Shown in pieces: positions 9,923 through 23,591 of a DNA stretch of 23,839 bases. Below the pieces are notes generated by a model that saw only the letters and a list, made by a program, of their open reading frames with translations, did not search any database and had not been told where the DNA came from. Positions within the stretch are counted from its first letter, which is position 1; each line of letters opens with the position of its first letter. Source of the stretch: a virus (lineage: Duplodnaviria; Heunggongvirae; Uroviricota; Caudoviricetes); the IMG/VR virus record IMGVR_UViG_2671180458_000011. One strand, written 5' to 3'. Position numbers and translations under genes: made by a program.

Positions 9923-10833
9923 TGTTTCATGTTGATAATAATTCCGGCGTGGCGAATATGCCTGCGCTGGCACCGGCGCAGAGTAATACCACCACCTGGT
10001 TTACCGAAGGTGACGGACAAAAAGGTATCAGCTGGATTGGTCAGGACTGGCTGAATATTCTCCAGGCCGAACTGCTGAATATTCTGGCTGAAGCCAGTAT
10101 TCAGCCGGATAAGGCGCAGTTAAACCAGCTTACGCTGTCCATTAAAGCCATTATCGCTGCGAATGCCTTTTCCCGGAAAAACAACCTGAAAGAAATTGCT
10201 GATGCCGGTGCGGAAGCCCAGCGTCTTGCCCGTAGTTATCTTGGTCTTGGGGCGCTTGCCACAAAAAACAGTCTTGGTCCCGGTGACGTTAATGCTCTGG
10301 CGAAGGATCAGAACCTTGCCGACCTGGAGAATGCGGGAACCGCCCGTAATAATCTGGATGTTTACAGCAAAAGCGAAGGTGATAACCGTTACCTGCGCAG
10401 GGAGCAGAACGGCGCAGACATTCCGGATAAAGGCGCTTTTATCGATAACGTCGGTTTACGGGAAACGGTAAATAAGGCTGCTGATGCCCTGCCATCGGGT
10501 GGAACCGCCGTGGCAGCAAACAGACTCGCCACCCCAAGAAATATTAATGGCGTTCCTTTTGACGGAACGCAGGATATCAACATCACGTCAGGAATGACGC
10601 AGTCAACCGCAGATGGCCGGTATGTACAGAATGTTCAGCTTGGAGCACAGAGCTATCATTCACCCGGAGGCAATGAAATATCATGGAATTACAGCGCACC
10701 TTCCGGTTGTATGCTTTCCGGTATTAACGTGCAGGAAACCGGCTCCCGGTCTGCGGACAATATCGGTGGGGTCTATTATCGCCCGGTTCAGATTTATATT
10801 AATAATGCCTGGAGAACGGTAAGTTCAGTGTAA
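9922..10833 (+). CDS. tail fiber protein: constant part (9922 to about 10451) fused to the currently in-frame variable part Sv (about 10465-10833)
   Basis: 303-aa ORF; a gix-like crossover site lies inside it at 10439-10464; its C-terminal tail resembles that of the inverted cassette on the opposite strand. Confidence 0.8.
   Translation: MFHVDNNSGVANMPALAPAQSNTTTWFTEGDGQKGISWIGQDWLNILQAELLNILAEASIQPDKAQLNQLTLSIKAIIAANAFSRKNNLKEIADAGAEAQRLARSYLGLGALATKNSLGPGDVNALAKDQNLADLENAGTARNNLDVYSKSEGDNRYLRREQNGADIPDKGAFIDNVGLRETVNKAADALPSGGTAVAANRLATPRNINGVPFDGTQDINITSGMTQSTADGRYVQNVQLGAQSYHSPGGNEISWNYSAPSGCMLSGINVQETGSRSADNIGGVYYRPVQIYINNAWRTVSSV
10439..10464 (+). other. gix-like recombination site, left (inside tail fiber gene)
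   Basis: TTATCGATAACGTCGGTTTACGGGAA: 26-bp site with two imperfectly symmetric 12-bp halves around a 2-bp core, closely resembling the Mu gix / Hin hix architecture. Confidence 0.7.
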
Positions 10834-11510: not shown

Positions 11511-11877
11511 TTAAATACTTGCAGCGGATACCCAATGCCCATTAATACAATATTGTATCTGTCTGTAATAAACACGGTCATCACCACCACGCATTTCCCA
11601 GTCTCCGTTAGTCTTAAAACCGGTAATCACATTTCCTGATGACAGGGAGTAATTATATTCCAGTCCGCCGCTTAATGCCTGCGCTCCCAGTCTTACCCCT
11701 GTAACATAACGCTGATTGGCCGTTGATTCCGGCATTCCTGACGTAATGTTTATATCCTGCGTGCCGTCAAAGGCGACACCATTGATTCTGCGGGCATTTG
11801 CCAGCCTGCTTGCTGCAACAGCCGTACCGTTTGATGGCAGGGCATTCGCGGCCCTGTTTACAGTATCCCGTAAACCG
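11511..11877 (-). CDS. alternative tail fiber C-terminal cassette (Sv'), promoterless in the current orientation
   Basis: Minus-strand frame open from the right gix-like site to the stop at 11511; C-terminus resembles that of the + strand fiber. Confidence 0.6.
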
Positions 11878-11890
11878 AGGTTTCAGGGAT
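11865..11890 (-). other. gix-like recombination site, right (inverted relative to left site)
   Basis: ATCCCGTAAACCGAGGTTTCAGGGAT; the 12-mer CCCGTAAACCGA is the exact reverse complement of TCGGTTTACGGG in the left site; sits just upstream of gin as in Mu. Confidence 0.7.
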
Positions 11891-11944: not shown

Positions 11945-12505
11945 ATGCTGATTGGCTATATACGCGTATCAACAAATGACCAGAACACAGGTTTACAAAG
12001 AAATGCGCTGGAATGTGCAGGATGTGAGCAGATTTTTGAAGACAAAATGAGTGGTAAAACGACACAGCGGCCGGGACTGAAGCGGGCACTGAAGAAACTA
12101 AAACCCGGTGACACGCTGATGGTCTGGAAACTGGACAGGCTGGGGCGCAGTATGCGCCACCTTGTTGCGCTGACAGATGAATTACAGCAACAGGGGATAA
12201 ATTTTCGTAGTCTTACTGACAACATTGATACGTCAACCCCCATGGGGCGCTTCTTTTTTCACATAATGGGTGCGCTGGCAGAAATGGAGCGTGAATTAAT
12301 TGTCGAACGGACACGGGCTGGTCTTGCAGCTGCCCGTGAAAGGGGACGAACCGGCGGCAGACCCCGCCGTCTCACGCAGGAACAATACGAGCAGGTCGGG
12401 CGTTTACTGGCCGGGGGTGTCAGTCGAAGACAGGTGGCACTTATTTTTGATATCGGTCTTTCAACCCTTTATCGTTATTATCCTGCGAGCGTTTCGGAAA
12501 AATAA
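11945..12505 (+). CDS. gin: serine DNA invertase (Gin/Pin/Hin family)
   Basis: 186-aa protein beginning MLIGYIRVSTNDQNTGLQRNALECAGCEQIFEDK, near-identical in pattern to Mu Gin including the catalytic-serine N-terminal domain and C-terminal HTH; AAGGAAGG Shine-Dalgarno upstream. Confidence 0.9.
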   Translation: MLIGYIRVSTNDQNTGLQRNALECAGCEQIFEDKMSGKTTQRPGLKRALKKLKPGDTLMVWKLDRLGRSMRHLVALTDELQQQGINFRSLTDNIDTSTPMGRFFFHIMGALAEMERELIVERTRAGLAAARERGRTGGRPRRLTQEQYEQVGRLLAGGVSRRQVALIFDIGLSTLYRYYPASVSEK

Positions 12506-12604: not shown

Positions 12605-14644
12605 ATGACGTCCAAATGGGTTCAACTATCATCAATGCCCGGAAACTTTACTGTTAAAGTTTCCGGTGGTACAGCGGCATTTCTTGAGGCTCCCTTTCCT
12701 CCGGCCGAAACAAAAGGAGGAATGACATTTGCTGACTGTCTCATCAGTTTTAATACACGGGATTGCCTGTGGGTAAGGCCAGTATCCGGTGATCCGAGTG
12801 TGGAAATTACCGGAGCGGGTATTGGTGCGGTCATTCCGTTAAGTGCTGATGTTGCCGGTACTGCTGAACCGTCAGACTGGGATAATGCTGAAACACATAC
12901 CCGTCCGTCAGGAAATGAAACTGCTTCCAGCTCCCCTTCCTGGTATTACGTGGTGGTTCTTGCTGGTCAGTCAAACGGTATGGCTTACGGTGAAGGTCTG
13001 CCACTGCCGGAGACATATGACCGCCCCGAACCGCGTATTATGCAGTTAGCCCGTCGCAGTACAGTCACGCCGGGAGGTAAAGCCTGTCAGTATAACGACA
13101 TCATTCTGGCCGACCACTGTCTGCATGATGTGCAGGATATGAGTGGAAAAAATCACCCGAAAGCGGATGTGGCTAAAGGGCAATATGGCACCGTGGGTCA
13201 GGGGCTTCACATTGCCAAAAAACTGCTGCCGTTTATTCCGGCAGATGCGGGGATTCTGCTGGTTCCCTGCTGCCGTGGTGGTTCTGCATTCACGGCGGGT
13301 GCTGACGGCACGTACAGTGACAGCACGGGTGCTTCAGAGGACTCAGCCCGCTGGGGTGTGGATAAGCCGCTGTATAAGGACTTAATCAGCCGGACAAAAG
13401 CGGCACTGGCGAAGAACCCGAAAAACCGCCTGCTTGCTGTGGTGTGGATGCAGGGCGAGTTTGATATTGATGCGAAGCCGACGGAGCATTCTGCGCTGTT
13501 TCTGGCGATGGTGGAAAAATTCCGCGCAGACCTGGCTGAACAGGCGGAACAGTGTACCGGTGGCAGTGCTGCTGGCGTTCCGTGGATTTGTGGTGATACC
13601 ACGTATTTCTGGAAACAGAAAAACGAACAGGCATACCAGGCAATCTATGACGGCTACAAAAATAAAACAGATAAAAACATTCATTTCGTCCCATTAATGA
13701 CAGATGAAAATGGCGCGAATGTACCCACCAACAATCCGGCAGAAGACCCGGATATTGAATCCATTGGTTATTACGGCTCAACGTGGCGTAACAGTGCCGC
13801 CACCTGGACATCTGCGGACCGGGCCAGCCATTTCAGTTCATGGGCACGTCGTGGGATTATTTCCGACCGTCTGGCCACGGCAGTTCTGACTCATGCGGGG
13901 CGAACCACAGTAAAAGCCGATGTTCCATCTTCTGAAACTGAAGCACCAGTGCCGTCACCTTCAGAAACTGAAGCAGTAACCACAACACTGCTGTCTTACC
14001 GTGTCAGTGAGTCAGAAGGAAATCTGAAAGCCCAGGGCTGGGAGCCGGCTGGCGGTAAAGCTGAAATTATCAGTGATGCAGGAGGCACAGGTGGTAAGGC
14101 AATGAAACTGACCAAGGAAACAGGTAAATCATCCTGGTATCTGGATCATGATGCCGGTACTGGTGCTGAACTGCTGAAAAATGGTGGTTTAATCAGTTGT
14201 CGTTTTAAAGTACCGGGCGACCTGGTGGCAAACCAGTATGTCATGGCGCTTTACTGGCCGGTTTCCTCTCTGCCGCAGGGTGTCACCCTGACAGGGGATG
14301 CAGGGAATAATCTGCTGGCATCGTTCTACATCCAGACAGACGCAAAAGACCTGAATGTGATGTACCACAATGCAAAAGTGGCAACAAATAACCAGAAACT
14401 GGGAACCTTTGGTGCATTTGATAATGAATGGCATACGCTGGCCTTCCGTTTTGCAGGAAATAACAGCCTTCAGGTTATTCCGGTTATTGATGGTCAGGAT
14501 GGTGCCGCGTTTACCCTGACGCAGTCACCAGTAGGAACTTTCCCGGTGGACAAACTCCGCGTAACGGATATCACAAAAAATGCAACTTACCCGGTGCTGA
14601 TTGACAGCATTGTGGTGGAAGTGAAAAAAGCGGTAACAGAATAA
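12605..14644 (+). CDS. SGNH/SASA-type esterase with C-terminal lectin-like domain (NanS-p-like sialate O-acetylesterase candidate)
   Basis: 679 aa; GQSNG block at about residue 120, WMQGEFD block and a D-x-x-x-H block consistent with SASA/DUF303 esterases; Pro/Ser/Thr/Glu-rich linker then about 230-aa beta-rich domain. Family call from motif recognition only. Confidence 0.5.
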   Translation: MTSKWVQLSSMPGNFTVKVSGGTAAFLEAPFPPAETKGGMTFADCLISFNTRDCLWVRPVSGDPSVEITGAGIGAVIPLSADVAGTAEPSDWDNAETHTRPSGNETASSSPSWYYVVVLAGQSNGMAYGEGLPLPETYDRPEPRIMQLARRSTVTPGGKACQYNDIILADHCLHDVQDMSGKNHPKADVAKGQYGTVGQGLHIAKKLLPFIPADAGILLVPCCRGGSAFTAGADGTYSDSTGASEDSARWGVDKPLYKDLISRTKAALAKNPKNRLLAVVWMQGEFDIDAKPTEHSALFLAMVEKFRADLAEQAEQCTGGSAAGVPWICGDTTYFWKQKNEQAYQAIYDGYKNKTDKNIHFVPLMTDENGANVPTNNPAEDPDIESIGYYGSTWRNSAATWTSADRASHFSSWARRGIISDRLATAVLTHAGRTTVKADVPSSETEAPVPSPSETEAVTTTLLSYRVSESEGNLKAQGWEPAGGKAEIISDAGGTGGKAMKLTKETGKSSWYLDHDAGTGAELLKNGGLISCRFKVPGDLVANQYVMALYWPVSSLPQGVTLTGDAGNNLLASFYIQTDAKDLNVMYHNAKVATNNQKLGTFGAFDNEWHTLAFRFAGNNSLQVIPVIDGQDGAAFTLTQSPVGTFPVDKLRVTDITKNATYPVLIDSIVVEVKKAVTE

Positions 14645-14790: not shown

Positions 14791-14973
14791 ATGACATTCG
14801 TTCATACAATGCTGCTTTATTTCTGCGCAGTGGTCAGTGCGTTATATCTGGTGAGCGGCGGTTATAAGGTCATCAGAAATTATATTCGCCGTAAAATTGA
14901 TGATGCGGCAGCTGAAAAACTCAGTAAAACAGCACAGGCACCGTCATCCCCAAACGACCCGACCCCGCTCTGA
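14791..14973 (+). CDS. small predicted membrane protein (60 aa), unknown function
   Basis: Single N-terminal hydrophobic helix then charged tail; AAAGGTAAGG Shine-Dalgarno-like sequence upstream; AT-rich foreign-looking DNA. Confidence 0.4.
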   Translation: MTFVHTMLLYFCAVVSALYLVSGGYKVIRNYIRRKIDDAAAEKLSKTAQAPSSPNDPTPL

Positions 14974-15008: not shown

Positions 15009-15254
15009 ATGCCAGAGATTAAAGGCACGGTTACTGAAGAGCTTGTCAAACAGGCACTTTATTCTGAAGAAGTGAACCGCGTGCTGAAGGCGCAGGTTCG
15101 CAAGGATTTTGAGGCACAAATCGACGCATATGTTGATGAAGTGCTGGCCCGAATGGTTGGCCATTCTCCGGCTGAAAACAGCACGGAGAATGAGCCTCAA
15201 GCCGTAGAGCAACCAGAGCCGGTTCAGCCCGGAACTGACGGTACTATGATGTAA
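15009..15254 (+). CDS. small acidic protein (81 aa), unknown function
   Basis: AAAGGAGA Shine-Dalgarno 7 nt upstream of ATG; helical-looking N-terminal half and acidic Pro/Glu-rich tail; followed by a hairpin. Confidence 0.45.
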   Translation: MPEIKGTVTEELVKQALYSEEVNRVLKAQVRKDFEAQIDAYVDEVLARMVGHSPAENSTENEPQAVEQPEPVQPGTDGTMM

Positions 15255-15283: not shown

Positions 15284-15292
15284 GTGAATTTG

Positions 15293-15463
15293 TTAATGCA
15301 CGTTTTGTGTACTTTCCCTCCGGGGAGAACAGGCAGGACATATCAGCATCCTGAAACAGGACGCATTTTGGGGTTTGTATGTCTTGCCATTTTGAGATCG
15401 AGAACGGCGATAGATGAGCTGTAAGGGAGTCTTACAGGCAGGGCAAACAGGCTCTTTATCCAT
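15293..15463 (-). CDS. small zinc-ribbon protein (56 aa, two CPAC motifs), unknown function
   Basis: Minus-strand ATG at 15463 preceded by AGGAGA with 8-nt spacing; Cys-Pro-Ala-Cys at residues 7-10 and 41-44. The ORF track's longer version (to 15487) starts upstream of the Shine-Dalgarno sequence. Confidence 0.4.
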   Translation of the reverse strand: MDKEPVCPACKTPLQLIYRRSRSQNGKTYKPQNASCFRMLICPACSPRRESTQNVH

Positions 15464-15565
15464 GATAAAGATCTCCTTTTTATGCATCTCTGCTTTACAG
15501 GAGACCGGGGAATATCATAGGATACGCCACGAGCTCGAAGTAAAGCATTGATGCGAATTTGTTCC

Positions 15566-15595
15566 AGGTCCAGATAGCTGTAACTATCTGGACCT
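15566..15595. promoter_or_regulatory. perfect 12-bp inverted repeat with 6-bp spacer (candidate operator or hairpin)
   Basis: AGGTCCAGATAG ctgtaa CTATCTGGACCT in the divergent intergenic region between the zinc-ribbon gene and com. Confidence 0.4.
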
Positions 15596-15643
15596 CCCTT
15601 TATGTAGTATCCTGTTGATTTGAAACATACTACATATACGCGC

Positions 15644-15821
15644 GATCCTACCTTCACTGTATAAAAAGTCAATAAAATGATCATTTTATGATCGTTTTCA
15701 CCACCTAAGTCTTCGTTTTCTTTAAGTAAATAATCACCGCCCTGAATCATTGTTGATGACTTTTCAATCTATTTGTTGTATCAATTAAACAAATCGAATC
15801 GATCGTTTTTGTCGATCGATT
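15644..15821 (+). promoter_or_regulatory. GATC-dense mom-operon control region (candidate Dam-methylation-sensitive promoter region)
   Basis: Five GATC sites in about 175 bp (15644, 15679, 15690, 15801, 15814), including a 9-bp inverted repeat AATCGATCG n7 CGATCGATT at 15797-15821 just upstream of com. Confidence 0.45.
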
Positions 15822-15864
15822 GCATGAGAAAGGCATCAACAACAAAGCAGGAGGTTATGCGGCC

Positions 15865-16065
15865 ATGTATCGAAACATACGGTGCCGACACTGCAATAAG
15901 CTACTGGCACGGGCCAGTTTCAGTTATCTGGAAGTAAAATGTCCGCGCTGTAAAACCCTCAATCAAATCACATCTCCGAGCGCCACAGAGCACCCCACAT
16001 ACACAAGGAAATCCTGTCGTGGGGAACAGAAAGCAAGCCACATCCCGTATCATCAGCACGCCTGA
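15865..16065 (+). CDS. com: Com-like zinc-finger translational activator of mom
   Basis: [14 protein letters not shown]...VKCPRCKTL...EHPT matches the Mu Com four-cysteine pattern; AGGAGG Shine-Dalgarno 10 nt upstream of ATG 15865 (ORF track starts at TTG 15820); 3' end overlaps the next gene as in Mu. Confidence 0.7.
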
Positions 16066-16756
16066 ACTTATTCGCTATAACGACAATATCGTTGGTTATG
16101 GCTCCCGTGAGTTGCGGGTTGAGACAATAAGTTGCTGGCTGGCCAGACTGGTCATCGTCAATAAACATTACAGCCACCGTTTCGTAAATAACTCCTACCT
16201 TCATCTGGGCATATTTTCAGAACGGGAGCTGGTTGGCGTAATGCAATGGGGCTATGCCCTTAATCCAAACAGTGGTGCACGCGTCGTAACGGGCACGCGG
16301 AACCGTGAATATATGGAGCTTAACCGGTTATGGCTGCATGACTGTATGCCGAGAAACTCCGAATCAAGGGCAATCAGTTACGCGCTCAAGCTAATCAGGC
16401 AGCTTTATCCGCAGGTACAGTGGGTTCAGTCGTTTGCAGATGAGCGTTGTGGCTGTCTTGGTGTCGTGTATCAGGCAAGCAATTTTGATTATGTAGGCAG
16501 CCACGAATCAACATTCTATGAACTTGATGGCGAGTGGTATCACGAGATTTGCAGGAATGCCATTAAACGAGGCGGACAGCGAGGTGAACATCTGAGGGCT
16601 AATATCGACAGAGCCAGTGTTCATAAATTCCGTCAGTTTCGTTACATCCGGTTTCTGAACAAGAGGGCCAGAAAACGCCTCAACACAAAGCTATTCAAAG
16701 TCCAGCCTTACCCAAAACCACAAACAGTTAAAACTGGTTTAAAAGAGAGTGAGTGA
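16019..16756 (+). CDS. mom: Mom-like DNA modification protein
   Basis: 245-aa ORF (GTG start) beginning inside the 3' end of com, the characteristic com-mom overlap; last gene before the prophage right end as in Mu. Called from context, not from remembered sequence. Confidence 0.6.
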
Positions 16757-18044
16757 ACGCTTAAAAACTCATTCTAAAACCCAAAAGAAAAGCGCCGATT
16801 TAGTATCAAATAAGTTGCGTATCGGCGTTTTTCAGCGGTATCAAATGAAATGCAAATCGGTATCAAAAAAATCGCCGCGCTATAATAAGCAGCTCAGAGC
16901 TGCCAATAAAGTCACTAACGTGCTGGATACAGAACTCACATCAGCCCGTGCCGCGGAACGTAAGGCCCAGCAAACTGCACAACAAGGTATGAAGGAAGAA
17001 GAGCGAGAGTTGTGCGCGTCACATTTTCCAGTGGTGACTTTGGAGCAATTGCCTGACATTCGCGATTTAGAACGTCAACATGAGCGGGGAATTCAGCATG
17101 AAATTGAAAGAGTTAAAGCTGAACTACATCGACTGAACATTGAGTTGACCAAACGTATGTCTGAAGCCAAACGTGTGGATACCGGGGCGCTCGTTGAGGC
17201 AGGGGCTGATTTGGACGATATTACTGTTTATTTACAGCGTTTGCAGGAACTGACCGAAGAAGCCCTGCCGGAAAAGCTCAATCGCTTCCTTGATTATCTT
17301 AACCGTTCATCCGATGACGGCGTAACACAACTGCTTAGCCATATTGAGCATGAGGTGCTGGTGATTGAGGAGCGCCTCAATGAACTCAATGAAACTATGT
17401 TCAGGGTTGATTTTCAGCCGTATCGCTACCTGCGTCTGGATACCAAAAAAGTTGTCCATGAAAGCCTGCGCACGCTTGAAAAAGCACAGCGTCAGCTAAA
17501 TGCCGCCCGATTTGTTGATGATAATGGCGAGAGCTATTATAAGGCTTTGCAGATACTGGTGGCGCAATTGCGGGATGCTTGTGAACGAAACCGTACCCTG
17601 GGAGCAAAAGCGCTACTGGATCCCCGTTTTCGACTGGAGTTCGCCGTATCGGTGATGGATCGTCAGAGCGGAAATGTGATTGAGTCTCGTACCGGCTCAC
17701 AGGGTGGTAGCGGTGGAGAAAAAGAGATTATCGCTTCTTACGTGTTAACAGCTTCACTTAGCTACGCACTTTGTCCTGCGGGGAGCCGTTATCCGCTTTT
17801 CGGTACCATTATCCTTGATGAAGCCTTCTCCCGCAGTTCTCATGCGGTGGCGGGTAGGATCATTGCCGCGCTTAGAGAATTTGGCTTACATGCAGTATTT
17901 ATCACCCCCAATAAGGAAATGCGCCTGCTGCGTGACCATACTCGTTCGGCGATTGTTGTCCACCGGCGCGGTCAGAATTCCAATATGGCTTCTCTGAGCT
18001 GGGAAGAGCTTGAACGACACTACCAGCGACGGGGGAACGCGTAG
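16749..18044 (+). pseudogene. jetC 3' fragment: C-terminal half of a Wadjet SMC-like ATPase, truncated by the prophage
   Basis: Contains signature-like GSGGEKE, Walker B IILDEAF and an H-loop His but no Walker A; the first 48 codons or so (16749-16896) are a Lys-rich read-through of phage-end sequence; coiled-coil-like sequence begins about 16897. Confidence 0.6.
16800..16896 (+). repeat. prophage right-end repeat array (candidate transposase-binding sites) ending in CA
   Basis: Three direct copies of GTATCAAA at 16803, 16838 and 16860 plus ATCGGCG/ATCGCCG motifs; GCGTTTTTC at 16825-16833 resembles part of the Mu R-end; terminal CA at 16895-16896. Confidence 0.4.
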
Positions 18045-18045
18045 G

Positions 18046-19194
18046 ATGTATTCCCCAGATGAATTGCGTGAAAAGCTTGCCCGGCAGTGGGATAGCGCAA
18101 AACTTCGGGCTGAACGCTTACTGTCCCCCGGTAACTGGCCGCTCTGCCTGCCTATTGGTAAACCTTCCACGAAAATATTTGCAGAGCAGACTCAGCGCGT
18201 TTTGCAGCACGTACAGCGATGGAGGCAAGTTGCGGTTGGGCACGTGGAATGGGAAGCGGTGAGTTATCGGGCAAGTGATACACCAGTATTAATGCCGTTG
18301 CGCTGGATTCTGAATAGCCCTTCTGAGTGGATCAACGCCGCTGCGGATCCGGTTGTGAGCCGGGAATTTCGCTTGCTGGAAGGAATTATTGAACAAGTTA
18401 ATCCCATTTTTCACCCGCTGTTGGTAAAGCATCGCTCTCTCTGGCGGCACAAAGATCCGCAGGGCGTCATCAGCGCCGCCACGCTGGCCTGCCGATTAGA
18501 GCCGGGCTGCGCAAAAGGGCTGCCGTTAAGATTGCTTTCCGGGCAAGGAGTGGATACCAAATTTATCGAGAATAATATTTCGTTATTAACCCGACTGTTA
18601 GACGTGCGGTTTTCAGGAGAAGCCAGCGAGCAGGGATTAACAACTTTTCTTGATGCTTTTGATGAGTCCAGTCACTGGGTTTTAGTTGTACCATTATCAC
18701 CCGGCTTACTTCCTTTTAAAAAATGCCGGGTAACAACGGCGGAACTGGCAGAAACAACATTACCTGCGTCGCAAGTACTGGTGGTTGAAAATGAGCAGTG
18801 TCTGCATCATCTTCCAGCATTATCTGACACTATCGCGATTTTAGGCTGTGGCCTGGACGTGCAATGGCTATCCAGTTCTGTTCTGGATGAAAAACGCGTT
18901 GCTTATTGGGGGGACATGGATAGCTGGGGATTACTGATGCTGGCGAGAGCCAGGCGCTGTCGTCCGACGCTTGATGCCCTGCTCATGAACCGTGAGTTGT
19001 TTGAGCAGTATGCCAGTCATAGCGCCGTTCCAGAACCGGTCATAGCGAAGGAAGCTGTACCTGATGGCTTGCTTAACGAAGAGGCCGATTTTTATCGCTA
19101 CTTAACCCGTTTACCGTGTGGTCGTCTGGAGCAGGAGTTTTTGCCAGTGGGGATTGCGGAAGAGGTGCTTCTCAGGTGGGGAAAAGAGAGTTAA
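18046..19194 (+). CDS. JetD-like Toprim-domain protein (Wadjet subunit D)
   Basis: ATG at 18046 two nt after the jetC stop (ORF track starts at TTG 18010); about 382 aa with VVENE and YWGDMD motifs typical of the DUF2220 Toprim-like domain. Confidence 0.65.
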   Translation: MYSPDELREKLARQWDSAKLRAERLLSPGNWPLCLPIGKPSTKIFAEQTQRVLQHVQRWRQVAVGHVEWEAVSYRASDTPVLMPLRWILNSPSEWINAAADPVVSREFRLLEGIIEQVNPIFHPLLVKHRSLWRHKDPQGVISAATLACRLEPGCAKGLPLRLLSGQGVDTKFIENNISLLTRLLDVRFSGEASEQGLTTFLDAFDESSHWVLVVPLSPGLLPFKKCRVTTAELAETTLPASQVLVVENEQCLHHLPALSDTIAILGCGLDVQWLSSSVLDEKRVAYWGDMDSWGLLMLARARRCRPTLDALLMNRELFEQYASHSAVPEPVIAKEAVPDGLLNEEADFYRYLTRLPCGRLEQEFLPVGIAEEVLLRWGKES

Positions 19195-19747: not shown

Positions 19748-20590
19748 TTATATCGCTAACGCTCCGGGATAGTGCTTAGCAATAATATCATTAAGCCTGT
19801 CAACCAGCTCTGGTTTCCTGAACGTGATGTGCGCGGAGCCCTTCTTAAAGTATCTGATGCTGAACATCTCATCTTCATAGTCCTCTTTACCCTGAACAGA
19901 CTGGACGTGATCATCCAGATGAATAGTGATGTTTTCCCGGTTGTCGGGGATCGGTTTGCCGCTGAACAGGTGTAGCATTCTTTCCAGATCAGCAAGTCGA
20001 TCTGCCTGTTGCCCGGTGATAAGATGAAAGCCCCACCGGTCCCACCTCATCAGGTTGTTGACGATAATTTTACTGCCAAATTTGCAGGGGCAATTGGTTT
20101 TGTAATTCCAGCTCAACCCTCTGAAGACGTTGATCACCCCCCGCTCAAACACCTCATCCTTATTCTGGTGCAGTTGTTCAAATGTGCTCAGAATGTTCGC
20201 TTCACTGATTTCCGGAAAATTATCGTATTCCAGTGACCGGTACCATGTATCACGGGCCTGTGCATCCATTAAGGAAAGCATCCCGGAACGTTGCATCAGG
20301 TCACGCCAGATTTCGCGATCGAGATTGCGTGTGATGGCTTTCATTGCGGTTTCAGGTTTCTCCATCAGCCAGCAACCGCAGTGAAAATTCTGTTTCATGG
20401 CCCAGTCCAGTGCGGTTTTACCGCCAATGCTTTCTGTCATTGCTGAGATTTCAGCCAGTTGCCGGATAAGTGTGTCGATTTGCAGCAGTGTACTCTTTCG
20501 TACAGCCAGAATGTGGAGGATACTGGTTGAGCAGATAACGTCCGTATGCCAGTTGACAACTTCCGGACGGGAGACTGTGATATCAGACAT
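19748..20590 (-). CDS. conserved hypothetical protein (280 aa; possibly DUF4942 family)
   Basis: Long ORF at the extreme island end next to the att repeat; family name is a tentative recollection. Confidence 0.5.
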   Translation of the reverse strand: MSDITVSRPEVVNWHTDVICSTSILHILAVRKSTLLQIDTLIRQLAEISAMTESIGGKTALDWAMKQNFHCGCWLMEKPETAMKAITRNLDREIWRDLMQRSGMLSLMDAQARDTWYRSLEYDNFPEISEANILSTFEQLHQNKDEVFERGVINVFRGLSWNYKTNCPCKFGSKIIVNNLMRWDRWGFHLITGQQADRLADLERMLHLFSGKPIPDNRENITIHLDDHVQSVQGKEDYEDEMFSIRYFKKGSAHITFRKPELVDRLNDIIAKHYPGALAI

Positions 20591-20674
20591 AATCGATATT
20601 CCTTTTTGCAGATAAATGAAAACGCCAGCCCTGTTCAGGCTGGCGTCAGTGGAATGAAGTCTGGTGAGTGAGAG

Positions 20675-20872
20675 TCACCGGTTCTGGTGCAGAAGCTGCA
20701 ACTGGCGCAGTGTACGGATATCTTCCCTGGCCTGTTCAATGCAGGGCAGCAGTGCTGCCGAATCCGTTTTATCCTCATCGTTGTCAAAGATAATTCCCGA
20801 TTCGCAGTCGATATTGTCCTGCAGCCACGCAATCAGAATATCCAGCGCTGTTTCCGTGGTTAATGATTTCAT
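20675..20872 (-). CDS. small conserved protein (65 aa; YeeW-like, possibly DUF957)
   Basis: ATG at 20872, 11 nt after the stop of the upstream gene; the ORF track's longer version (to 20917) overlaps that gene. Confidence 0.45.
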   Translation of the reverse strand: MKSLTTETALDILIAWLQDNIDCESGIIFDNDEDKTDSAALLPCIEQAREDIRTLRQLQLLHQNR

Positions 20873-20883
20873 GTTGTTTCTGG

Positions 20884-21372
20884 TTACCAGTTGAAAGTGG
20901 GTAAACCCGGCAGGCATTCAGCGCTGGCATCCAGATGAATGAGACTGACGCCATAACGTCGGGTAAGTGTGACAACCAGACGGCGGAACGTTTTTGACAG
21001 CCCCAGGCGTTTAAGCCGCAGAACCGGGTATGACCACGCATCGGTACGTAACAGATATCCGCTACCTGTGAAATGAATCCATTCTGATTCGCCGGTGTCA
21101 TTCGTCTGATGTGACAGCGAGTACAGCCAGGCGTTGTCCTTTGCAGTGATATGCGCGGTACTGCAGCGTATGCCGGTCAGGGCAGCAAATGGTGGCGTGC
21201 AGTCTGTTGAGACCCGGTCAGATTCATCAACAACACGAAGGGAGTGGCCATTGTCGCAGACCACGTTAATCAGTTCAGCGAGATTAACACCATCGACGTC
21301 AACGACAATTCGTCCCATGTTCAGCGTCTGCACGTTAACGCTGTCTGCTTCCAGCGTCAGAGTCAGTTTCAT
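20884..21372 (-). CDS. conserved hypothetical protein (162 aa; possibly DUF5983), translationally coupled to cbtA
   Basis: Start overlaps the cbtA stop (ATGA-type overlap at 21369-21372). Confidence 0.5.
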
Positions 21373-21746
21373 TGTTTCGCCTCCGGATGCTTCCCCTGGG
21401 TAATGTTATTTACCGTTCTGTAATTGTCGCGGGTCATCAGGCCGGTCGCCCTGCGAGCCCGGAGGATATCGATGCTGTTTATTAACTGAGAACGGGTACA
21501 GGCATTGAATTCCGGCTGGTCGGTACGCACCAGTGCGTATTTTTCAACAAGAAAGTTCACTGCATCGCACAGTGAAATGCCAGCTTCAATATGCTGCTCA
21601 ATCACACGTTCATCGGCAAACGGTGTGTCATTCAGTGTGAGGCCATAATGCTGGTCCAGCAGTCGGATGAGCAGTGTCTGCCAGATGGTGACGGGAGACG
21701 GGCAGCGAGATACCTCCCGTACATGTGTGTCGGATAATGTTTTCAT
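21369..21746 (-). CDS. cbtA: CbtA/YeeV-family toxin (type IV TA, cytoskeleton-targeting)
   Basis: [14 protein letters not shown]...[48 protein letters not shown] matches the CbtA/YeeV/YkfI/YpjF family; start taken at the internal ATG 21746 (ORF track 21848 extends into the antitoxin gene). Confidence 0.85.
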
Positions 21747-21792
21747 CTTAAGTTCTCTGTAACTGGTAGTGCTAAAGGTGAGAGCTTCGGGG

Positions 21793-22167
21793 TTATGAGG
21801 TGGTTGCGGGTGCCTGTGCCGGATAAACAGCCAGATAAACGTAACCACAGGAGCCGAGGGTGTCGGCTTCGCAGGTCAGCCCTTTTGCATACAGCGTGAC
21901 GGTATGCTGATTTCGGGGATTCAGTTCACCGCTGGTGAGCATGAGTTCCAGTTGTTTCATCAGCAGCGGAAAGGCCTGGTCCAGATGGTATGCATCTGCG
22001 TCGCTGAAGCGGCCGCTGATACCGGCGCGGTCGGCAAGGTAATGCAACCGGTTACCCTCCTGCACCAGACGGGCGCCAAAACAGGGTTTCACTGTGCAGG
22101 GAAGCCCCCACCAGGGGCGGTCGTGATTGTCGTCGGGATGAGTTATCCCGGAGAGTTTGTCTGACAC
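21793..22167 (-). CDS. cbeA: CbeA/YeeU-family antitoxin (type IV TA)
   Basis: 124 aa with [16 protein letters not shown]...[19 protein letters not shown], the YeeU/YfjZ/YafW family pattern; directly upstream of the toxin. Confidence 0.85.
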
Positions 22168-22329
22168 GATAAAATCCTCTCTGAAAAGTGGTTAAGAATG
22201 GTTTAACGATGACAGGTCAGCCGGGGCACTGACCGGTTTCGGTGAAGATGTATGCATTGATGAGAATGGCCTCATCCACAGCGGCGTCTGAGGTCATCTG
22301 GTCGTACTCGTTTCCCGGGTGACGGAACA

Positions 22330-22551
22330 TCAGTTCAGGGTGACGCTCATCAGCCGGACATACGGGCCAAAACTGTCCTTATGGCGTTCAGCAAACACGG
22401 CCAGCACACCGGGAATATCCTGCACTTCACGACCGGTATACGCTTCAGTGCTGCCGTGCCAGCGGTATTTGCCGGTACAGAAAGGAAAAAGACGGGATGC
22501 CGGATGTTGTTGGTGAATACGCATGGCTTCACCACGGGTGATGATTTTCAT
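22330..22551 (-). CDS. YeeT/YpjJ-like protein (DUF987)
   Basis: 73 aa, MKIITRGEAMRIHQQHPASRLFPFCTGKYRWHG pattern of the YeeT family; conserved position between RadC-like and antitoxin genes. Confidence 0.8.
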   Translation of the reverse strand: MKIITRGEAMRIHQQHPASRLFPFCTGKYRWHGSTEAYTGREVQDIPGVLAVFAERHKDSFGPYVRLMSVTLN

Positions 22552-22613
22552 AGTGTGATACCTCTGAAGACAGAAGATAAAAGTGAAAACAAGCGTGATG
22601 TGGTTGTGACGGG

Positions 22614-23105
22614 TTAAAGCAGACCATGTTCGGCAAAGGAGAAAACCTGGTTGCCACCGACTATCAGATGGTCCGGCACCCGGATATCCACCAGGCCCAG
22701 TGCCTGTACCAGACGTTCCGTGATAAGGCGGTCTGCCTTGCTGGGTGTGACTTCACCGGACGGGTGATTGTGCGCCAGCACCACGGCAGCGGCATTGTGG
22801 TACAGGGCGCGTTTAATCACTTCCCGGGGATGGACTTCCGTGCGGTTGATGGTGCCGGTGAAGAGGGTTTCACCGGCAATCAACTGATTCTGGTTATTCA
22901 GATACAGCACCCGGAATTCTTCACGCTCCAGTCCCGCCATGTTCAGAATCAGCCATTCCCGTGCCGCACGGGTGGAGGTGAAGGCCACGCCGGGTTCATG
23001 AAGATGGCGGTCCAGGGTTTTCAGGGCCCGCAGAATGAGACTGCGCTCACCGGGCGTCATCTCTCCGGGCAGAAAGGAAAGTTGTTGCATTGTGCTTCTC
23101 TCCAT
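22614..23105 (-). CDS. RadC-like JAB-domain protein (YeeS/YfjY/YkfG family)
   Basis: 163 aa with the HNHPSG JAMM-type motif; likely start at the internal ATG (MQQLSFLPGE). Confidence 0.85.
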   Translation of the reverse strand: MERSTMQQLSFLPGEMTPGERSLILRALKTLDRHLHEPGVAFTSTRAAREWLILNMAGLEREEFRVLYLNNQNQLIAGETLFTGTINRTEVHPREVIKRALYHNAAAVVLAHNHPSGEVTPSKADRLITERLVQALGLVDIRVPDHLIVGGNQVFSFAEHGLL

Positions 23106-23591
23106 TCAGTCGATGATGCGCATAATGGCGCTGCATTCCGGATGCTGCAGGGCGTAATCCCGCAACCGGTAATAATGGACCGTCATGGCATAACACTCCG
23201 TACGACAGGCATGATGACTGTACGTCATCAGACAGGCGGCAATGCCGGCGGCTTCCGGGCTCATTTCAGCGCGGTTACCGTTCATGGCATTGAACAGTAC
23301 CCAGTTTTCGCCATCATCGTCATCCGGTTCGGGGGCCATAAATGCGCCACCGTTGTTCAGTGTGTACAGATTCCAGATACCACCGCAGTAGTCTTCGCAA
23401 AGACGGTCCATCCAGCCGAAGATACGGGGCTCCAGGGTCACCCACTGTGGAATGAGGCCAAAATGCTGCGGCCAGAAGCTGATGCGCTGTTCATCAGGGA
23501 CTATGGTGGCAACCAGCTGAGACTGGTCATTCCCTGATGCAGCGGTTACGGAAACAGAAGATGTGGTGGAATTATGTGAAATGGTTTTCAT
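23106..23591 (-). CDS. antirestriction protein (YfjX/YafX/KlcA-ArdB-like)
   Basis: 161 aa; sequence pattern of the CP4-type antirestriction family; immediately upstream of the RadC-like gene as in CP4 islands. Confidence 0.75.
   Translation of the reverse strand: MKTISHNSTTSSVSVTAASGNDQSQLVATIVPDEQRISFWPQHFGLIPQWVTLEPRIFGWMDRLCEDYCGGIWNLYTLNNGGAFMAPEPDDDDGENWVLFNAMNGNRAEMSPEAAGIAACLMTYSHHACRTECYAMTVHYYRLRDYALQHPECSAIMRIID

Follow-up and report, generated by a model that had tools for sequence, protein, structure and literature searches.

A com-mom DNA-modification module of the Mu type in an Sp18-type prophage

The com and mom genes and their products

The window, i.e. the whole stretch of 23,839 nucleotides of viral DNA analysed here (IMG/VR record IMGVR_UViG_2671180458_000011), carries two overlapping genes on the plus strand, com and mom, in the same order as in phage Mu (Mup54/Mup55, NC_000929). 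The first, com (15865..16065), starts with ATG and encodes 66 aa, and by homology its product would be a CCCC zinc-finger RNA-binding translational activator. The second, mom (16019..16756), starts with GUG and encodes 245 aa, which homology likewise suggests to be a GNAT-fold, Gly-tRNA(Gly)-dependent adenine N6 aminoacyltransferase. A Shine-Dalgarno sequence, GGAGG (15850..15854, plus strand), is found 10 nt 5' of the com ATG, at the position occupied by AGGAGG in Mu com. A start at TTG 15820, which would give an ORF of 81 aa, was considered for com and discarded, since ATG 15865 has the GGAGG and fits both the N-terminus of Mu Com and the RefSeq call.

Concerning Com, the original prediction had recognized a Com-like four-cysteine protein, and profile searches bear this out, with a match to Pfam PF10122 Zn_ribbon_Com (E 2e-12, 46.8 bits, cut-off 22.9) and another to the PHROGs entry 'gpCom control of modification' (5e-13); the protein is also entered as a member of the Com family in RefSeq. 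The CxxC-N15-16-CxxC zinc finger is present, its cysteines C7, C10, C26 and C29 align with the zinc ligands of Mu Com, also a CCCC zinc finger, and a fifth cysteine, C51, is read from the sequence. Compared with Mu Com the protein is 46% identical and 4 aa longer, and the four zinc cysteines are invariant in the alignment. Com appears to have no solved relative detectable by sequence in the PDB, where the search returned only weak matches to eS27 zinc ribbons (E of at least 0.014). A search of NCBIfam (release 20) with Com, Mom, the product of the divergent gene and the JetC fragment (see below for both) yielded zero matches.

The assignment of the 245-aa ORF to Mom, originally made from its context, is confirmed by profile searches against Pfam (PF25680: E 4.5e-77, 258.7 bits, cut-off 27.1, with profile positions 1-202 of 202 covered) and PHROGs (PHROG 1384, 'Mom-like DNA modification protein', E 1e-83). 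The protein is 79% identical to Mu Mom, i.e. 21% of the residues differ, with the whole protein aligned and zero internal gaps. It also matches the Mu Mom crystal structure, PDB 8bv8, which is the sole solved Mom structure, with an E of 1e-124 and no gaps over residues 5-233. That structure displays a GNAT (acyltransferase) fold with an HTH-like insertion (PMC13219725, a 2026 paper), so that an unrelated family lacking an acyltransferase-like fold, the outcome named beforehand as fatal to the assignment, is not what the search returned. By homology to 8bv8 at ~80% identity, a GNAT fold is inferred for the 245-aa Mom. The Mom-specific HTH-like insertion (Mu residues ~175-209) is present and gapless, with 28 of its 35 positions identical and 7 differing. 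Relative to Mu Mom, the 245-aa Mom is extended by 12 aa at its C-terminus, and its N-terminal tail is less basic.

Mutational data are available for Mu Mom, in which R111, S124, D149 and R151 are essential and H58, Y59, Y159, W48 and W181 are important, the mutants losing activity or dropping strongly (PMC13219725). Subtracting 8 from the Mu number gives the numbering of the 245-aa Mom, and all nine residues are identical: W48, H58, Y59, R111, S124, D149, R151, Y159 and W181 of Mu correspond to W40, H50, Y51, R103, S116, D141, R143, Y151 and W173. Mom moves glycine from Gly-tRNA(Gly) to the N6 of adenine in double-stranded DNA, and the adduct rearranges on the base to N6-carbamoylmethyl-dA (PMC13219725). 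The donor is now known to be glycyl-tRNA(Gly) instead of acyl-CoA, which updates the wording of the original prediction.

The dN/dS ratio of mom, calculated on the part outside the overlap, is 0.024 against the closely related locus L005 (30 synonymous and 3 non-synonymous differences), and it is 0.064 against L019; these ratios hold within the clade only, dS being saturated against more distant relatives. They point to strong purifying selection on mom in its clade.

The reading frames of com and mom share 47 nt (16019-16065), as the original prediction had it and as found again from the ORF list and the sequence; in Mu the overlap is 50 nt, counted from the GUG. GTG 16019 is the sole in-frame start codon 5' of the conserved Mom body. 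Among 80 related viral loci, 74 have a com ORF with the CxxC...CxxC pattern that ends 44-62 nt past the proximal mom start. The overlap is 47 nt in all 25 loci of this clade and 50 nt in Mu-type loci. As judged from these sequences, the arrangement is not due to chance.

Prophage type, right end and neighbouring genes

Sequence comparison identifies the element as a Mu-like transposable prophage of the Sp18 type known from E. coli O157. Sheath, tape measure, baseplate, tail fibre and invertase genes precede com-mom in a late region collinear with that of Mu-like phages. At an identity of at least 95%, the 1.2 kb around com-mom occur in 233 of the 5426 complete E. coli genomes, at 295 places whose neighbouring genes vary widely, the mark of a transposable phage.

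The best-known copy is Sp18 of E. coli O157:H7 Sakai (ECs_4997 and ECs_4998, the latter named 'DNA modification protein'), a prophage of the same type whose 1.2-kb region is 97.9% identical and which shares the promoter region, the overlap and the right end. A single residue distinguishes the two Com proteins, and three distinguish the two Mom proteins. The two prophages differ in their insertion site, which is sorM in Sakai and jetC here, and in the divergent gene upstream of com, which is intact in Sakai (ECs_4996) and frameshifted here. Sakai Sp18 shows the full Mu-like gene order, including the late-transcription activator gene, and it has been judged intact, with its DNA packaged (PMC2669165). 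It was noted in 2011 that Sp18 and other phages of the Mu kind have genes for homologues of Mom and of its regulators at corresponding positions (PMC3299994). Taken together, the low dN/dS within the clade and the few differences from the Sakai proteins argue for a module that is functional in this lineage, and are silent on its expression in this particular lysogen.

As in Mu, com and mom close the series of genes at the right end. Three independent insertions have a common sequence through 16884 (...GCGCTATA) and diverge beyond it, most matches in E. coli genomes end at 16884, and the match to jetC opens at 16885. [quoted passage not shown] The right end itself (16803..16884, plus strand) contains three direct repeats starting GTATCAAA (at 16803, 16838 and 16860), which are probably transposase-binding sites. 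From the mom stop to the prophage end there are 128 bp, against 115 bp in Mu. The last positions, 16876-16884, read ...GCCGCGCTATA, so that the terminal dinucleotide is apparently TA where Mu has CA (...GCCGCTTCA), with an uncertainty of 1-2 nt given that three flanks were aligned. A 13-nt inverted repeat, GAAAAGCGCCGAT / ATCGGCGTTTTTC, followed by a T-run, lies after mom (16787..16833, plus strand) and may be a terminator; its loop is 21 nt long, and a simple terminator scan did not report it.

The region upstream of com departs from the Mu arrangement. In Mu the invertase gene directly precedes com, whereas here a 3.3-kb accessory block and a divergent gene intervene. The invertase gene (11945-12505) is followed by three accessory genes that are absent from this place in Mu: a gene for a 679-aa protein with a sialate O-acetylesterase (SASA) domain and DUF6645 (12605-14644), a DUF1378 gene (14791-14973) and a DUF826 gene (15009-15254). 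The SASA plus DUF6645 architecture resembles, by description, that of the NanS-p esterases of Stx prophages (PMC10462455). The divergent gene (15343-15750, minus strand; remnant 15286-15750) is the counterpart of Sakai ECs_4996, which encodes 154 aa, belongs to phrog_26524 and has a C-terminal CPAC...CPAC. Relative to ECs_4996 it is frameshifted by a 1-nt deletion near 15457 and carries other indels; in the nearly identical copy F7508 the gene is entered as a frameshifted pseudogene. Further upstream, inverted repeats of 179 nt (10447-10625 and 11704-11882, 74% complementary) lie 1078 nt apart, inside and after the tail-fibre gene and beside the invertase gene. The segment between them is the invertible host-range segment of this prophage type, and its content is unlike that of the Mu G segment.

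The prophage has inserted into jetC, a gene of a Wadjet (JetABCD) defence locus. From 16885 onward come the last ~385 codons of jetC, with the SbcC/MukB Walker B domain, and jetD (DUF3322 and JetD_C) follows at 18010-19194. In strain JNEC-KY202 the uninterrupted jetC ORF has 1095 aa, and the insertion point falls at about codon 709; the jetA of that strain is annotated with an internal stop. The junction between phage and jetC was found in none of the 5426 complete E. coli genomes. A 431-aa ORF (16749-18044), whose GTG start overlaps the mom stop codon, was also considered as a phage gene and rejected, since it runs in frame from the phage end (16884) into the 3' part of the host jetC and is thus a chimera. 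Downstream of the Wadjet remnant there is a segment of a CP4-type island (19748-23591) with a DUF4942 gene (19748-20590), where the collinear region of JNEC-KY202 suggests ParDE and CbtA/YeeU toxin-antitoxin as well as antirestriction genes.

Predicted translational switch and upstream control region

In Mu, Com binds a short hairpin that adjoins the translation-inhibition structure, whose stem holds the mom GUG (PMC6483171). Both elements have predicted counterparts here, in the same relative positions. The translation-inhibition hairpin (15993..16024, plus strand) is formed by CCCCAC 15993-15998 and GUGGGG 16019-16024, and the mom GUG start would lie in its 3' arm, as it does in the CCCAC/GUGGG hairpin of Mu; the start context GUG-GG(A/G) is homologous in both. 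The stem is of 6 bp, against 5 in Mu. The mom Shine-Dalgarno sequence, AGGA 16006-16009, lies in the hairpin loop and is partly paired by an inner helix, whose position over the Shine-Dalgarno sequence is a difference from Mu.

Folding of 15990-16030, suggested in the original prediction as a check, yields the anticipated hairpin with the GUG start in the 3' arm, at an MFE of -12.6 kcal/mol (z = -2.2; 3 of 200 shuffles equal or better). The six inhibitory pairs reach a probability of at least 0.98 in contexts of 71, 151 and 301 nt, with a probability of 0.00 for the GUG being unpaired, and the same was computed for Mu. Across relatives the counterpart of this helix is 92% paired with almost no variation. 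It should be noted that in such a nearly invariant helix covariation gives no proof, and that its conservation could reflect the two overlapping coding frames. Distant relatives hide their start signals with other sequences: L077 does so by GCCA/UGGC with an AUG start, and L033 by an 8-bp stem over the Shine-Dalgarno sequence. Rfam holds no family that matches anywhere in the window, and none for the mom inhibition structure.

The predicted Com target on the mRNA (15978..15994, plus strand), GAGCGCCACAGAGCACC, fits the SELEX-derived Com motif GAGNNCC(N)2-3GAGNNCC (PMC6483171) and aligns with GAAUGCCUGCGAGCAUCC of Mu at the same place; both loci share a predicted Com-site hairpin of the type GCC-N3-GAGCA directly 5' of the inhibitory hairpin. 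Here this hairpin would pair G15980-C15983 with G15990-C15993 around the hexaloop CACAGA, with a C15981·A15992 mismatch that distinguishes it from Mu. The second pair is C·A in this clade, and a near-identical relative, L024, has U-A. In this clade the hairpin is weakly predicted, with a pair probability of 0.02-0.28. When 15 diverse sequences are aligned, all four pairs of the hairpin (4 bp plus hexaloop) have changed on both sides, with stem variants such as AUGC/GCAU, GCAC/GUGC, GCGU/ACGC and GGGC/GCCC, 93% of the cells remain paired, and the covariation score is reached by zero shuffles.

A single base, C15993, belongs to both structures, as the outer pair of the Com hairpin and as the first base of the inhibitory stem. 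As it is common to both stems, we infer that a Com protein stabilizing the upstream hairpin would compete with the inhibitory stem. Inspection by eye of L033 (~1480-1530) showed a further possible arrangement, in which the loop of the presumed Com hairpin, GCGU-CUCCGA-ACGC, is complementary to the mom Shine-Dalgarno region (GUCUCCGA/UCGGAGAC, 8 bp), and given this complementarity the Com hairpin and the inhibitory helix would exclude each other in that locus.

Upstream of com, a perfect 9-bp inverted repeat, AATCGATCG-N7-CGATCGATT (15797..15821), contains two Dam sites (GATC 15801-15804 and 15814-15817) and presumably serves, by analogy with Mu, as a control region of the Dam/OxyR type for the com-mom promoter. 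Upstream Dam sites are shared with Mu, where there are three, and most relatives have 2-3 GATC sites clustered upstream of com. Between the last GATC and the com ATG there are 47 nt, compared with 74 nt in Mu, the Dam sites here being 27 nt closer to com. The palindrome is invariant in nearly all Sp18-type loci, and the next ~17 nt (15822-15838) vary among close relatives. A sigma-70 scan of the plus strand upstream of com gave no promoter consensus. This is expected by comparison with Pmom of Mu, a poor promoter which needs the activator C and is under Dam and OxyR control via three GATC sites (Mu literature). In control of the Mu type an operator for the C activator lies between the Dam sites and a weak -10 element; here neither operator nor -10 element could be placed by eye or by comparison of relatives, because 15822-15838 varies among close relatives. 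In the clades L029-L031 the same GATC pair is followed by a TATACT- or TATAGT-like hexamer. Dam-dependent control is plausible, and the promoter architecture may differ from that of Mu; transcriptional control is the least certain part of the com-mom picture.

Two side observations concern the same region. An imperfect inverted repeat of 23 nt (15741-15763 and 15829-15851, 78% complementary) flanks the Dam-site palindrome, one arm falling on the start of the divergent gene and the other on the com leader and Shine-Dalgarno sequence, so that the divergent leaders look like mirror images. In the related loci L069, L071 (about 1340-1500) and L083, Mom homologues of 69-76% identity have no com gene upstream; L069 and L071 have three GATC sites directly 5' of an ATG-started mom, which suggests a Dam-only control without the translational switch.

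Mode of action, alternatives and significance

In every feature that could be tested the locus belongs with Mu com-mom, and its differences from Mu are minor. Other phages have a comparable layout: in FluMu (hin1523), Pnme1 and phage B3 (ORF47/48) a Com homologue is encoded directly 5' of a gene for DNA modification, and Com sites are predicted at the 5' end of that gene (PMC3299994). These carry an adenine methyltransferase instead of Mom, whereas the gene found here is a true mom.

We consider it highly probable that the com-mom operon of this Sp18-type, Mu-like transposable prophage is functional and works as in Mu. The analysis itself showed which genes these are, that the catalytic residues are kept and the frames overlap, that the hairpins are predicted and conserved, that mom is under purifying selection and that the module lies at the end of the prophage; the course of events would follow Mu. 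Under Dam, OxyR and C control, com and mom would be transcribed on one transcript, late as in Mu. With the mom GUG 16019 locked in the 6-bp hairpin and the ribosome-binding site in its loop, mom would by default not be translated. Com, made from the same mRNA, would bind the small hairpin and the GAG..CC..GAG motif at 15978-15994, and once bound it would open or destabilize the inhibitory stem, allowing ribosomes to start at the GUG. Mom would then transfer glycine from Gly-tRNA(Gly) to the N6 of adenines in the double-stranded phage DNA, and the rearrangement of the adduct to N6-carbamoylmethyl-adenine would block many restriction enzymes. Counting against this reading are the C·A mismatch and low pair probability of the Com hairpin in this clade, the near-invariance and modest z-score of the inhibitory helix, the missing sigma-70 consensus, the shorter interval from the Dam sites to com and the frameshift in the divergent neighbour.

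Three other readings have to be weighed against this one. The module could be intact in sequence yet silent or cryptic in this lysogen, either in a defective prophage copy or with a clade promoter that is not activated as in Mu. The missing promoter consensus, the shorter interval from the Dam sites with only two GATC, the variation between close relatives in 15822-15838, where the -10 would lie, the frameshift in the divergent neighbour and the fact that the left 15 kb of the prophage, including the activator gene, fall outside the window all speak for it. Yet Pmom of Mu is itself poor and activator-dependent, mom shows the mark of strong purifying selection within the clade, and the promoter variant is that of Sakai Sp18, judged intact and packaged, so we regard silence as unlikely. 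A drift of Mom in specificity, concerning either the DNA context or the aminoacyl-tRNA donor, with a modification different from that of Mu, seems less likely still, and quite improbable overall. The amino-acid differences from Mu Mom (21%), those in the HTH-like insertion, which has been proposed as the DNA contact (7 of 35), the C-terminal extension and the less basic N-terminal tail could be read in this way, but all residues relevant to catalysis are identical, the full alignment has no internal gaps, and far more distant metagenomic homologues are reported to be active in the same assay.

Least credible of all, and in our opinion scarcely to be entertained, is that the overlap and the hairpin are by-products of overlapping frames with no regulatory role, mom being translated by simple coupling to com. 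An almost invariant inhibitory stem is what a two-frame constraint predicts, and the z-score is modest, but L077 and L033 sequester their start signals with different sequences, the upstream hairpin has compensatory changes in all four of its pairs, and experiments in Mu show com-dependent translation.

A further conjecture, which we hold to be rather improbable although less so than any of these alternatives, is that the Sp18-type operon is wired transcriptionally unlike Mu, the Dam palindrome lying inside the core promoter and not upstream of an activator site, and that Mom, through the changes in its insertion and its C-terminal tail, prefers a different sequence context. If true, neither the altered wiring nor the altered context would change the identity of the module.

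The module is already known, being annotated in RefSeq and mentioned in the literature, and it offers nothing new. Its naming is uneven, as a survey of RefSeq in the matching genomes H19-H43 shows. The Mom family goes by four names, 'hypothetical protein' (in the closest genome), 'protein mom', 'Mom family adenine methylcarbamoylation protein' and 'tRNA(Gly)-dependent adenine aminoacyltransferase Mom', and Com is called a 'DNA-binding transcriptional regulator', though it is an RNA-binding translational activator. The 'hypothetical protein' entry for Mom and the name given to Com could be corrected; apart from annotation the module is of little consequence. With a Com 46% and a Mom 79% identical to those of Mu, the locus offers a natural second example for comparing the recognition of RNA by Com and the specificity of Mom. 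Concerning the biology of the phage, the virions that this prophage yields probably contain hypermodified adenines and are able to pass from strain to strain across restriction barriers, which bears on how Mu-like phages spread in Shiga-toxin-producing E. coli.
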